55,755 nt of DNA from a bacterium. Lineage in GTDB: Bacteria > Patescibacteriota > Minisyncoccia > Phycocordibacterales > UBA918. This document shows positions 5,546 to 30,697 of the stretch, piece by piece (positions within the stretch are counted from its first letter, which is position 1; each line of letters starts with the position of its first letter). The position numbers and the translations under genes were made by a program. The notes beneath the pieces were generated by a model. It did not search any database. It saw only the letters and a list, made by a program, of their open reading frames with translations, and had not been told where the DNA came from. The DNA lies in contig JAUIFS010000002.1 of the NCBI GenBank assembly GCA_030430425.1, positions 1-55,755 on the forward strand, given 5' to 3'.

Positions 5546-5552
5546 ACTTTTG

Positions 5553-5635
5553 TGCGCCGGGAGGGATTCGAACCCCCGTAGGATAAATCCGACAGGTTTA
5601 CAGCCTGTTGCAATTGACCGCTCTGCCACCGACGC
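5553..5635 (-). tRNA. tRNA-Tyr (anticodon GTA), long variable arm, no encoded CCA
   Basis: Hand-folded: acceptor GCGTCGG/CCGGCGC (one G-T pair), D arm GCAG..TGC, anticodon arm ACAGG-CTGTAAA-CCTGT, long variable arm, T arm GGGGG-TTCGAAT-CCCTC, discriminator A. Confidence 0.92.
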
Positions 5636-5725: not shown

Positions 5726-6778
5726 ATGAAATGGGGTAGACAAATACTCATTATTTTCTTCTGTGTAACAGTTTTTTTTAGTGCTGCAGCGGGAGTGCGG
5801 GCACAGGGATCACTCACGCAGCCAGTGGCAGACGACTCGTTGTATCCAGCGGGAGGCATTGTCCCGAGTGGCACCGGAGACTTTACACCAGAAGGCTATG
5901 GAAGCTGTGAGCTTGTAGAGATGGTTAATAACGTCATGCAATTTTTGATTGCGGTCAGCATCATCATTGCGGTGATTGTCTTTATTTTTGCTGGCTACCT
6001 TATGGTGTATTCGCGTGGTGACGCGGGACAGATACAGCGTGCGAAGGGACTGTTTGGGAATGTGCTTATGGGTGTTTTGCTGCTTCTTACTGCATACCTC
6101 ATCATCAATACTATCCTTGGTGTTTTACTCGGAAGTACGTCAGCAGCGCTTAACTGGAAAACTATTGAATGCTCGTATGCAAATGAGGTGGGGAAAGCGG
6201 CTGCATATAATGTAGAACTTACATACAGTGAGGTTGATTGGGTGGTGGTAGATAAATACACTGGTTTTTCAGGCTCTGGGGGCACAGGAGGTACTGGATC
6301 TAGTGGAGGTGGGAGTTGTACGGTGCCTTCTGACACAGGCAATGCTTGTCATCCAAACAATCTAAGCTGTTTTGGAAGTAAAGCTGCTGAGGCATCACAG
6401 GTTTGTAGCTTGGAAAGTGGCGGAGGAAATATAAAAGCAGTTTCAGGGACTGATAGGTGCAAGGATGGAACGTCCTTTTCCGGTGGGTTGTTCCAGGTGA
6501 ATATTTTGGCGCACTATAATAATATCCCAGGCTGTTCTAATGACTTCTTTAGAAAGAACGGTTCGGGTACGCAGGGTACTTGTTTGCGAGAAGCTGGTCC
6601 GGCTAATAATCCATACTGTGCAGTGCGCGATTGTGAAATTACAAAACCGCAGGTGTACAAAGCATGCATGAATGCAGTGTTTGATCCGAATTGGAATATT
6701 TCCTATGCGTGTAAGTTGTACAGTAGTGCCGGCTCTTTTAGAGACTGGGCTTATTCGGCTAATAAATGTGGCGTATGA
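5726..6778 (+). CDS. VirB2/TrbC-like two-helix pilin module fused to SLT-type lytic transglycosylase domain
   Basis: Signal peptide, Cys61, TM1, conserved SRGD loop, TM2, NWKTIEC, Gly/Ser linker GSGGTGGTGSSGGGS. The Cys-rich C-terminal domain has SLESGGG (catalytic Glu-Ser) and GGLFQVN (GLMQ-type) motifs. Confidence 0.8.
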   Translation: MKWGRQILIIFFCVTVFFSAAAGVRAQGSLTQPVADDSLYPAGGIVPSGTGDFTPEGYGSCELVEMVNNVMQFLIAVSIIIAVIVFIFAGYLMVYSRGDAGQIQRAKGLFGNVLMGVLLLLTAYLIINTILGVLLGSTSAALNWKTIECSYANEVGKAAAYNVELTYSEVDWVVVDKYTGFSGSGGTGGTGSSGGGSCTVPSDTGNACHPNNLSCFGSKAAEASQVCSLESGGGNIKAVSGTDRCKDGTSFSGGLFQVNILAHYNNIPGCSNDFFRKNGSGTQGTCLREAGPANNPYCAVRDCEITKPQVYKACMNAVFDPNWNISYACKLYSSAGSFRDWAYSANKCGV

Positions 6779-28566: not shown

Positions 28567-28637
28567 TGCCGGATCGTCTAATGGTAGGACTGCGGTTTCT
28601 GGTACCGTCTATCTAGGTTCGAGTCCTAGTCCGGCAG
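28567..28637 (+). tRNA. tRNA-Gln (anticodon CTG), no encoded CCA
   Basis: Acceptor TGCCGGA/TCCGGCA, D arm GTCT-AATGGTA-GGAC, anticodon arm GCGGT-TTCTGGT-ACCGT, T arm CTAGG-TTCGAGT-CCTAG, discriminator G. Confidence 0.92.
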
Positions 28638-28647
28638 CACTTAGCAT

Positions 28648-28671
28648 AAAACACCCTTTATGGGTGTTTTT
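28648..28671 (+). terminator. Hairpin terminator after tRNA-Gln
   Basis: aaaacaccc/gggtgtttt stem followed by a T-run, nested in a longer imperfect stem (28637-28681). Confidence 0.65.
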
Positions 28672-28681
28672 GCTTTAGTGC

Positions 28682-28804
28682 TGTCGGACAGAAACAGTCT
28701 GGGAGACTGTTTCGTTAGGACTCGAAGACCTTGCCTGATATTTCGCAAGAAATATCGACAAGGTGTACTGCCGCTGTAAGCGGAGAGATTCCTAGTCCGG
28801 CAGC
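28682..28804 (+). pseudogene. tRNA-Gln-derived pseudo-tRNA (acceptor and D-arm remnants, core replaced by hairpins)
   Basis: TGTCGGA (28682-28688) can pair with TCCGGCA (28796-28802). GTCT...TAGGACT D-arm remnants are present. The last 15 nt (28790-28804) are identical to tRNA-Gln 28624-28638. The interior holds three hairpins, including one with a GCAA loop. Confidence 0.6.
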
Positions 28805-28873
28805 TTTGAACACAAAACAAGAAAATAGGGGTTTCTAAAGGACTGCTTTGAAAGCTCTCCCAGAGCTTTCAAA

Positions 28874-28997
28874 CTAGTACCGTCTATCTAGGCTGAAACA
28901 ATCCATAGATTGTTTCAGAAGGTTGCCTGCGATTTTGACGGAGGGAAAATCGTGACAGCCTGTACTGAACATGTAATGTTCGAGTCCTAGTCCGCAG
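28874..28997 (+). pseudogene. 3'-half copy of tRNA-Gln (anticodon to 3' end) split by an 85-nt hairpin-rich insertion
   Basis: 28874-28892 (ctAgtaccgtctatctagg) matches tRNA 28599-28617 with a single change (anticodon CTG to CTA). 28978-28997 matches tRNA 28617-28637 with a 1-nt deletion. The insertion 28893-28977 contains an 11-bp and a 7-bp hairpin. Confidence 0.75.
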
Positions 28998-29036
28998 TCC
29001 GAGGAGGTCATCTGATCTGGGTTATACTAATGGTTT

Positions 29037-29045
29037 TGATATAAT
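29037..29045 (+). promoter_or_regulatory. extended -10 element TGaTATAAT, 6 nt before the ATG (possible leaderless mRNA)
   Basis: TGATATAAT at 29037-29045 and ATG at 29052. No Shine-Dalgarno sequence lies between them. Confidence 0.35.
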
Positions 29046-29051
29046 GTCTAA

Positions 29052-30050
29052 ATGATTACTCTTCCTCCAGAAATTGCAGAAAAATTACCTACAGCAATGA
29101 AAATGCCTGAGGGAACACTACAGTTTTCTGTGGCGTTTGAGATTGATTTTTTTGATACACATTTGCCCGGTGGACTTGTCTTTGAACAGGTAGCCGGACT
29201 TCATTATTTTCGCTTGGAACGGACAGATGATTCCAGAATCAAATTCTATCGAGCTGCACCTTCGGTCGGTACACAAATGTCTGTGGCTGATATTTCATCT
29301 GTATCTTCTGCGATGAAGGTAATGATTTTTCTCGTATGGTCGCCTGTAGAAGCTAAGATACATATTGGTCCAGCAGGAGTTAAGGGAGCTAAGCTTGTTA
29401 CAGGGGAGAGTATAATTTCAGACAAAAATTTTATGATAGATAGAAATGGAAGTGTTTATGAGGTGGGCTCTCCTGGGGTTAGTATTAAGGGTATAAGAGT
29501 TATAGAGGGAGAGAAAGTGACCTTGACACCTTCTGCTTATGATTACTGGCAAGAAACAAAAGGTGCAATATCATCACTGCTTTTGAATCACGGTGATGAA
29601 GATTATGCATCAAAGACAATAAAATCTAATGCAGCATTTATATTTCTCGTTACCGGTTTTGAATCTTACTGCAAAACAAGAGTGTACGAGTTGGAGCGGG
29701 AAGGTGTTGTGCTATTGTGGAGTGAACTTGAAAACAAAGCAGGTATCACAAGAGATCAATTACTTGGAGATACTACTAGCTATTTCCAATCAACAGAGAA
29801 TTCAAAAAAAATTTGGAAAACTTTAACTGGTATTTCAATTGCTGAGCTTGATCCTGCAGGATGGGAGGTTATGTTGCCAGCTTTTAAGTTTCGTCATAAG
29901 ATTGCGCATGTATCACCTATTTTGAGCATTATGAATGAAGGTGCTTCAGGTGGAAAACTCTTATTTAGTTCTAATGAGATAGTGAATGCGGTGGATGCGT
30001 GTGATTCTGTTGTCGAAAAAGTGCACACACAAACTTTGAAATTACGCTAG
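29052..30050 (+). CDS. hypothetical protein with C-terminal HEPN-like region (Rx4H)
   Basis: AT-rich ORF: two hand-counted 60-nt lines gave 28-30 % G+C, versus ~50 % in neighbouring core genes. The C-terminal ~150 aa look helical, with FKFRHKIAHVS (R-x4-H) about 50 aa from the end. The N-terminal ~170 aa are beta-rich and unknown. Confidence 0.6.
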   Translation: MITLPPEIAEKLPTAMKMPEGTLQFSVAFEIDFFDTHLPGGLVFEQVAGLHYFRLERTDDSRIKFYRAAPSVGTQMSVADISSVSSAMKVMIFLVWSPVEAKIHIGPAGVKGAKLVTGESIISDKNFMIDRNGSVYEVGSPGVSIKGIRVIEGEKVTLTPSAYDYWQETKGAISSLLLNHGDEDYASKTIKSNAAFIFLVTGFESYCKTRVYELEREGVVLLWSELENKAGITRDQLLGDTTSYFQSTENSKKIWKTLTGISIAELDPAGWEVMLPAFKFRHKIAHVSPILSIMNEGASGGKLLFSSNEIVNAVDACDSVVEKVHTQTLKLR

Positions 30051-30106: not shown

Positions 30107-30697
30107 ATGTACAATACAGCTATGCTTATTTTATATATTCCAACCATAAACTTTATCCTCGCACTTGGGGCAGTCGCACTTTTTCTTGTAACCATTGCGC
30201 TGTGCATCGATGCATTTTTCTGCAGAGGTGTCTATTTTGAAACATACATACGAAAGTATGCATTTCCTGTGATAACTGCGGTGACGGCGGGATCAGTTGT
30301 GATGACACTGGTGTATTCAGAATATTTTGGTTTTGTACCGTGCTCACTGTGTTGGTTGCAACGTATCGCACTCTACCCGCAGGTGCTTATGACGCTCATT
30401 GCATGGCGTGTAGAAGACCGTATGTATTATCCATTGTATGGCATGGGTATTGCACTATTTGGCTTTGTGGTTGCTGCATATCATTATGTATACCAGCATC
30501 TTCCAAAAGAGGTTCGTGAGTCAGTAGCCCCGTGCCTGCTTGATGGAAGTAATGCTGATTGTGCAGACAAAATCATGAGCGTGTTTGGTTTTATTACATT
30601 TCCACTTCTTTCCGCGGTAACGTTTTTATTCCTTGCGGTCGTGTATTTCTCTCTGTTCCGTGCTGAGAAAAATAAAGCGTATTCTACACAGCAGTAG
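30107..30697 (+). CDS. disulfide bond formation protein (DsbB/BdbC-like)
   Basis: Four TM segments, VPCSLCWLQRIALYP (CxxC-W-x-QR) and a second Cys pair CLLDGSNADC. Start at Met 30107 or 30122. Confidence 0.8.
   Translation: MYNTAMLILYIPTINFILALGAVALFLVTIALCIDAFFCRGVYFETYIRKYAFPVITAVTAGSVVMTLVYSEYFGFVPCSLCWLQRIALYPQVLMTLIAWRVEDRMYYPLYGMGIALFGFVVAAYHYVYQHLPKEVRESVAPCLLDGSNADCADKIMSVFGFITFPLLSAVTFLFLAVVYFSLFRAEKNKAYSTQQ

Follow-up and report, generated by a model that had tools for sequence, protein, structure and literature searches.

The window analysed here, a 55,755-nt stretch of DNA, is one entire contig of a Candidate Phyla Radiation (CPR)/Patescibacteria-type genome (G000; 726 kb, ~95% complete) and carries on its forward strand a 332-amino-acid (aa) gene whose product is, with high confidence, a HEPN-type nuclease protein. 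In this protein, a C-terminal HEPN domain is joined through a helix to an N-terminal β-sandwich that we presume to be a sensor or regulatory domain. The fuller reading, according to which it is a stand-alone sensor–HEPN RNase acting in abortive infection, is the one we favour, with moderate confidence. The protein belongs to a two-domain family that is unnamed and whose architecture is absent from Pfam, PADLOC and the literature searched. The gene had been singled out in a sequence-only reading of the window, and the list of open reading frames (ORFs) contains it exactly where that reading had placed it.

The 332-aa ORF is a real gene under purifying selection. A word-indexed search returned a first homologue as its sole match, P0002, which lies on a 2-kb metagenome contig and shares 65% identity with the query; relative to it, the ratio of non-synonymous to synonymous substitution rates (dN/dS) is ~0.20 in both domains, an approximate value at a dS of ~1.2. 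Exhaustive HMMER searching retrieved 259 family representatives (clusters at 50% identity) at E<=1e-3 and 202 at E<=1e-10, nearly all of them ~330–390 aa long and matched across both halves, the two domains always occurring together. In an alignment of 60 members, W96, E204, R210, E213, R281 and H286 are invariant, and G21, P70, G73, T74, A162, W166, N193, G202, Y206, E217, G218, F245, Q246, K252, H282 and H325 are near-invariant. The gene and both of its junctions recur with zero differences in low-depth contigs from two independent metagenome studies, and no empty-site or excision joint was found at the gene in four metagenome runs. The sequencing runs found to contain the sequence are all DNA metagenomes.

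Several lines of comparison support the assignment of the C-terminal domain to the RiboL-PSP clade of HEPN domains. Profile HEPN_RiboL-PSP (PF18735) is matched by 17 of the 60 family members, the best at 1.1e-8, and a few members also match HEPN_Apea, MAE_28990, Swt1 or Cthe2314. The homologue P0003, which aligns with the query over its full length (39% identity, E 1.9e-70), scores 33.0 bits against PF18735 over residues 193–322, above the gathering cut-off of 28.4 bits. Independent testing used four bona fide members of PF18735 that come from other Patescibacteria. Aligned to these with hhalign, the family gave a probability of 77% and an E-value of 2e-5, with R placed on R and H on H, the INFQN...YRHRIIHVSP block of the family being paired with the R-x4-H block of the PF18735 proteins. 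A joint alignment of five family members with the four PF18735 proteins (A6) left E204, R281 and H286 as its sole invariant columns, and E204 falls on the [WFY]E[GST][FY] motif of the PF18735 proteins. In the predicted fold, the C-terminal domain is helical (main helices 185–216, 248–259, 268–286 and 306–329) at a predicted local distance difference test (pLDDT) score above 90, and the R-x4-H motif ends helix 268–286. The sequence-only reading had pointed to a HEPN-like C-terminal domain carrying R-x4-H within FKFRHKIAHVS; both the motif and the domain are borne out, R281 and H286 being present in 60 of 60 homologues. Collectively, these comparisons support E204, R281 and H286 as the probable active-site residues.

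A 354-aa protein from another Patescibacteria contig (L057:1060-2124) passes the PF18735 cut-off at 29.3 bits and carries NFQN...RLRHKIIH blocks that are strikingly family-like. Its N-terminal half differs from that of the family, and the protein may represent a sister architecture with another sensor domain.

An AlphaFold2 model built from the 60-member alignment reached a pLDDT of 94.3 and a predicted TM-score (pTM) of 0.91; a run with two sequences only was unusable (pLDDT 36), and the 60-member alignment was used instead. The model comprises a β-sandwich of ~12 strands (residues 21–158), a linker helix (162–177) and a helical domain (185–329), in keeping with the β-rich N-terminal half and helical C-terminal half that had been read from the sequence. 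The pTM indicates that the two domains are held in a fixed arrangement. For the N-terminal domain, the best Foldseek matches are β-sandwiches of the concanavalin A (ConA)-like, galectin, CBM40 and PL7 lyase types, all of them weak (E ~0.1, probability 0.5–0.7), and Laminin_G_3 is weakly matched in 3 of the 60 family members (E>=0.16); a ConA-like/LamG fold class is plausible. A profile search of the PDB with the 60-member alignment produced spurious matches to designed TIM barrels only. In two other Patescibacteria genomes, frames of 111–115 aa (L021, G141:C9:51718-51993; L022, G146:C1:109057-109353) match the family profile over no more than its first ~100 positions (about 10–108, the region of the N-terminal domain) at E ~1e-6; they may be free-standing relatives of the β-sandwich domain or what is left of it.

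The gene is foreign to its lineage, solitary, horizontally mobile and patchily distributed. None of 60 relatives from the same genus and order carries it, and the family profile recovered no full-length copy from 400 genomes drawn from across the phylum. A search with a 10-member sub-alignment located 26 family loci in GTDB species genomes, spread over no fewer than 10 bacterial phyla and three lineages of archaea. Bacterial carriers include Gammaproteobacteria (among them the isolate Shewanella canadensis HAW-EB2), Chloroflexota, Acidobacteriota, Aminicenantes, WOR-3, Bacteroidota, Trueperaceae, Thermodesulfobacteriota, Firmicutes-like taxa and one member of the Parcubacteria; the archaeal carriers are Bathyarchaeota, Argoarchaeum and Nitrosopumilaceae. 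In many loci the G+C content of the gene lies far below that of its surroundings (0.40 vs 0.58 at L031, for example), several copies look truncated, and one is interrupted by an IS66 element. Patchy distribution, foreign G+C content and truncated copies are typical of conflict genes.

Individual loci illustrate this variability. At L023:10001-12180 and L024:7067-9246, the family copy is cut to 247 aa by an overlapping IS66-family transposase gene, and the surroundings, with many HTH_17/excisionase-like genes as well as genes for dCTP deaminase and thymidylate kinase, suggest a mobile element. Apparently truncated or frameshifted copies were seen in metagenome-assembled genomes (MAGs) of Parcubacteria (L042:41-1141), Desulfovirgula (L045:7995-8786) and Ktedonobacter (L046:8001-8561), where the open frame falls short of the tblastn match or residues 1–219 alone are matched; such cases suggest frequent decay of the family gene.

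This distribution bears on the possibility that the protein works in the cell's own RNA metabolism, as a housekeeping or regulatory RNase or by binding RNA, perhaps in connection with an episymbiotic lifestyle, and has no role in conflict. HEPN proteins that function in RNA processing do exist (PMC3710099), the window gene is stably present in the samples of two studies, its promoter is of the host type, and the genes flanking family members are mostly housekeeping genes. Yet it is missing in 60 of 60 relatives and in the 400 genomes of the phylum, the family is extremely patchy across bacteria and archaea, its G+C content is often foreign to the locus, and copies are pseudogenised or disrupted by insertion sequences. 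Patchy spread, foreign G+C and decayed copies therefore make a core function unlikely, and we consider a purely housekeeping role improbable.

An all-against-all comparison of 240 neighbour proteins from 32 family loci identified no conserved partner protein, the largest neighbour cluster covering 3 of the 32 loci, nor was any conserved flanking small ORF, tandem repeat or sequence block/non-coding RNA found across family loci. This extends to the 32 loci the initial impression that no antitoxin, MNT or ATPase gene accompanies the window gene. A HEPN–MNT pair, or any other type II/VII toxin–antitoxin (TA) pair, was rejected on the size of that largest cluster and the lack of a conserved small ORF. 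Recurring upstream genes of ~500 aa were considered as partners and proved to be unrelated housekeeping genes. Beside the family member lies a CTD6 domain gene (PF20282, known from ABC-3C conflict systems) at L026:248-595 and a DUF6731 gene at L025, both isolated hints of conflict-system neighbourhoods.

Among described systems, the closest relatives of the C-terminal domain are the PF18735 proteins themselves, described as ‘Ribo L-PSP-HEPN’ (Anantharaman et al. 2013) and reported to be distantly related to AbiD/AbiF (PMC3710099). A review lists PF18735-type HEPN domains for the validated systems PD-T4-2, PD-T4-5, PD-T7-3 and ApeA (PMC10952713). The family shares with PF18735 proteins three motif blocks, namely the helix-1 glutamate in [WFY]E[GST][FY], F-Q(-N) and R-[HN]-x3-H; close family members exceed the Pfam cut-off, whereas the query remains below the threshold of the model, and both groups consist of sporadic, conflict-type genes. 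The classical PF18735 proteins found in this analysis (L054–L056) are, however, ~180–215 aa long, and two of the three are paired with a DUF262/ParB-like gene, others having been described as fused to endoRNase L-PSP, whereas the family has a fixed N-terminal β-sandwich of ~160 aa and no partner. In the two paired cases, from other Patescibacteria (L054:344-2094 and L056:1477-3205), the short PF18735 HEPN gene directly follows the DUF262/ParB-like gene with overlapping or abutting frames, a layout that corresponds to the ‘operon with ParB’ arrangement of the 2013 description (PMC3710099); at L054, an ORF just downstream is likely to encode a DNA methyltransferase, judging from its sequence.

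ApeA (HEPN_Apea, PF18739; Gao et al. 2020) resembles the family in being a single protein in which non-HEPN domains accompany a HEPN RNase, which in ApeA they gate, and P0003 weakly matches HEPN_Apea (25.8 bits). ApeA aborts infection by cutting tRNA anticodon loops; deoxydinucleotides activate it, its ligand pocket lies away from the catalytic centre, and it assembles into doughnut-shaped decamers or dodecamers (10.64898/2026.01.26.701840). In contrast to the family, with its all-β N-terminal domain, ApeA is ~580 aa long, its N-terminal and Mid domains are helical and its HEPN domain is split. The systems DARNA/PD-T7-3, PD-T4-2 and PD-T4-5 (Vassallo et al. 2022) are likewise stand-alone HEPN proteins that combine R-x4-H with another (sensor) domain. 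DARNA is a tRNA anticodon nuclease activated by single-stranded DNA (ssDNA) presented by the single-stranded DNA-binding protein of the phage; its HEPN domain is N-terminal and its C-terminal sensor is helical, Pds5-like and ssDNA-binding (10.64898/2026.02.22.705581), unlike the arrangement in the family. The PADLOC models of ApeA, DARNA/PD-T7-3, PD-T4-2 and PD-T4-5 matched none of the 60 family members. HEPN–MNT (HepT/MntA) and RnlA/RnlB share the HEPN RNase-type R-x4-H motif, and their active site is built by a dimer, but these systems need an adjacent antitoxin gene, whereas the 32 family loci have no conserved neighbour. By analogy, ApeA and DARNA/PD-T7-3 appear to be the best counterparts of the family: single-protein HEPN abortive-infection nucleases are known as a kind, and what is new is the presumed sensor domain and a domain order differing from those of ApeA and DARNA.

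On these analogies we infer RNase activity, dimerisation, sensing by the N-terminal domain, an RNA target and an anti-phage role. The protein would be a cytoplasmic, stand-alone two-domain RNase in which the β-sandwich is rigidly linked by the conserved helix to the RiboL-PSP HEPN domain. Two HEPN domains would dimerise into a composite active site, as in ApeA and DARNA/PD-T7-3 (PD-T4-2 is also HEPN-bearing), and the non-HEPN domain would silence the nuclease until an infection cue is sensed. The enzyme would then cut cellular RNA, with tRNA anticodon loops or mRNA as the most plausible targets, arresting the cell and aborting phage replication. The gene itself would have been acquired horizontally as a naked single gene, inserted behind tRNA-Gln at a site prone to rearrangement, and would be expressed from a leaderless extended −10 promoter of the host type.

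A number of observations weigh against this reading. The query has no direct match among Pfam, PADLOC, NCBIfam or PDB sequence profiles, with noise only in PHROGs, and hmmscan gives no match to PF18735 at E<=10, also in the search space of its own genome; its HEPN assignment is transitive, resting on sequence homologues. Foldseek comparison of the whole model with PDB and BFVD returned no significant match, HEPN structures included. The subclade of the query has diverged in a conserved loop of the N-terminal domain, which reads AAPSVGTQ in the query and SSPGTGTR in the family consensus. PADLOC defence models gave no convincing match in 60 family members, and no family member was found in IMG/VR viral contigs, INPHARED/GenBank phages or PLSDB plasmids. 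The survey of homologous neighbourhoods, from which a defence-island context had been hoped for at the outset, yielded weak context: neighbours are mostly housekeeping genes (ThiC, RadA, permeases, SLT, NfeD, amine oxidase), and the few defence-type PADLOC matches among them (PDC-S13, LmuA, PDC-S09) amount to weak guilt by association.

The 332-aa gene is a mild compositional outlier and not an extreme one. Its G+C content is 39.1% (28.3% at third codon positions), compared with 46–48% in the upstream neighbour genes and a genome-wide ORF mean of 44.7 +/- 3.2%, which places it at z = -1.8 and as the 24th lowest of 534 ORFs. The initial estimate of 28–30% against ~50% was thus correct in direction and overstated in size, such values being reached by only the three poorest 60-nt lines of the ORF.

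No Shine–Dalgarno (SD) sequence was read before the ORF, and its extended −10 box, TGATATAAT, probably serves as a leaderless promoter of the kind usual in this host. Among G000 ORFs of >=150 aa, only 14% have an SD-like motif, and 19% have a −10-like hexamer ending 5–9 nt before the ATG. The TG extension is present on 38 of these boxes, typically as TGGTATACT or TGATATACT, with a TGGTATACT-like consensus. Leaderless-type expression therefore appears to be the norm in G000, and examples of such starts in the window lie at 5726, 34736 and 53124. The layout initially described, an extended −10 box without SD and a possibly leaderless mRNA, is real and reflects a host-wide promoter design rather than a peculiarity of this gene. 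A host-type promoter argues for expression of the HEPN gene. Immediately downstream, the gene for a DsbB-like membrane protein likely starts not at GTG 30077 but at ATG 30122, which is in frame and corresponds to M16 of the listed ORF; a TACAAT occupies 30110-30115, with 6 nt between it and this ATG, in the same leaderless layout. As the DsbB-like gene would have its own promoter, the HEPN gene is probably monocistronic.

On the 5′ side of tRNA-Gln and the 332-aa ORF, the locus comprises a PBP5-like carboxypeptidase gene, dnaX and a histidine phosphatase gene; on the 3′ side, beyond the DsbB-like gene, it continues with genes for a small membrane protein and a Clp-type ATPase. In the relative G006, dnaX, the histidine phosphatase gene and tRNA-Gln are conserved and the genes after tRNA-Gln differ, marking a break in synteny; in relatives, the DsbB-like gene never adjoins tRNA-Gln. 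This setting would accommodate a selfish passenger without current function, a lone gene of recent arrival that is possibly the remnant of a degraded tRNA-integrating element: the synteny breakpoint lies behind a tRNA gene, no mobility genes or bracketing repeats are left at the window locus (none of the tRNA-3′ repeats lies downstream of the ORF in an att-like bracket), the G+C content is mildly foreign and truncated copies occur elsewhere. The frame in the window is nevertheless intact and retains all invariant family residues, dN/dS is ~0.2, the promoter is a good one of the host type, and a strongly reduced 0.73-Mb genome would rarely retain useless DNA, so that a functionless passenger is also unlikely.

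In the 412-nt gap between tRNA-Gln and the ORF, copies of the 3′ part of tRNA-Gln (28783-28819, 28874-28892 and 28978-28994) are interspersed with several hairpins, and the gene does follow this tRNA-derived mosaic directly, as the sequence-only reading had it. The association of the mosaic with the HEPN gene is not supported. Eight of the 31 tRNA genes of G000 (Table 1) have their own 3′ 17-mer copied within 700 nt downstream (<=2 mismatches; copies located 100–340 nt downstream), where chance would give ~5e-5 per tRNA; duplication of tRNA 3′ ends is thus genome-wide in G000 and has no specificity for tRNA-Gln. Partial tRNA-Gln copies also flank tRNA-Gln in the relatives G004, G006, G016, G021 and G045, all of which lack the HEPN gene. 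Across the family, ~30 of 32 loci have no tRNA or tRNA fragment nearby, fragments occurring near the gene in only 2 of ~32. A type III TA or AbiF-like system was rejected on the flanks of the family loci, which share no repeats or similarity and narrow to gaps of −1 and 31 nt at L031 and of 16 and 89 nt at L039, leaving no space for an RNA gene. The proposal that the protein is the toxin of a TA or addiction module, with transcripts of the tRNA-Gln-like mosaic as decoy or antitoxin RNA, can draw on the control of AbiF-type HEPN nucleases by RNA antitoxins (10.64898/2026.02.22.705581), the distant kinship of RiboL-PSP HEPN domains with AbiF/AbiD, the 58 nt that separate the HEPN gene from the last tRNA-3′ copy and the presence of two tRNA-3′-like repeats at one other locus (L037), but with eight duplicated tRNAs to one HEPN gene in G000, the same copies in relatives without the gene, dissimilar flanks devoid of conserved tandem repeats and loci with no room for an RNA, it is very unlikely.

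At that other locus, L037:1470-1610 in an Anaerolineaceae MAG, two tRNA 3′-end-like copies (GGTTCGAGTCCTrGTCGAGGAGCA) lie just downstream of the family gene, each followed by the same G+C-rich hairpin, with no intact tRNA on the 4.2-kb contig. They resemble scars of the att type, as left by a tRNA-integrating element, and tRNA-targeted integration may be an occasional vehicle for the family gene. In the window, the tRNA-Gln debris, the leaderless promoter and the dip in G+C content belong to the host genome or to the insertion site and are not parts of a system.

Table 1. Features of the 332-aa gene, its product and its surroundings. Positions are those of the window; positions prefixed with C are given by contig of G000.
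Feature	Position	Strand	Basis
332-aa gene, putative two-domain sensor–HEPN protein (including stop codon)	29052..30050	+	ORF list, family membership, dN/dS
N-terminal β-sandwich domain, residues ~20-158, presumed sensor/regulatory	29109..29525	+	AlphaFold2 with DSSP, ~12 strands, pLDDT ~95; conservation
Predicted linker helix joining the two domains, residues 162-177 (A162 and W166 conserved)	29535..29582	+	AlphaFold2, conservation
C-terminal HEPN domain, RiboL-PSP type (supported), residues ~185-329	29604..30038	+	PF18735 matches of homologues, hhalign, joint alignment
Codon of E204, invariant helix-1 glutamate, motif TGFESY	29661..29663	+	60-member and joint alignments
R281-H282-K-I-A-H286, putative R-x4-H catalytic motif, C-terminal end of helix 268-286	29892..29909	+	invariant in 60/60; joint alignment
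Extended −10 box TGATATAAT, 6 nt upstream of the ATG	29037..29045	+	direct reading and genome-wide tally
Intact tRNA-Gln(CTG) with 3′ copies, synteny breakpoint/insertion hotspot, context only	28567..28638	+	ARAGORN; Rfam 54.8 bits
Intergenic mosaic of tRNA-Gln 3′-part copies and hairpins, context only	28639..29051	.	sequence comparison
tRNA-Tyr(GTA) with 3′ copies	5552-5635		
tRNA-Thr(CGT) with 3′ copies	C3:3704-3777		
tRNA-Leu(TAA) with 3′ copies	C27:4589-4673		
tRNA-Lys(CTT) with 3′ copies	C27:5221-5294		
tRNA-Leu(TAG) with 3′ copies	C27:5472-5554		
tRNA-Arg(TCT) with 3′ copies	C40:2507-2580		
tRNA-Glu(CTC) with 3′ copies	C43:832-904		

The reading of the protein as a sensor–HEPN abortive-infection RNase gains its interest from single-protein nucleases such as ApeA and DARNA, which are only now being understood and each of which reads a different infection cue. 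A conserved, confidently predicted and unmatched β-sandwich paired with a HEPN domain could reveal another such cue, and the family is distinguished by this domain, by its spread between the domains of life, from Shewanella to Bathyarchaeota, and by its CPR host. More tentatively, and with some doubt on our side, the family might constitute an uncatalogued single-gene immune system across Bacteria and Archaea, in which the β-sandwich would be a new type of infection sensor gating a RiboL-PSP HEPN domain, the SSPGTGTR loop and the invariant tryptophan would form a ligand- or protein-binding site, and the gene would spread naked, without recognisable mobility genes, into housekeeping neighbourhoods, including that of a 0.73-Mb CPR genome able to afford few defence genes. 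If the abortive-infection reading is true, the gene would join a small set of abortive-infection candidates from ultrasmall CPR bacteria.

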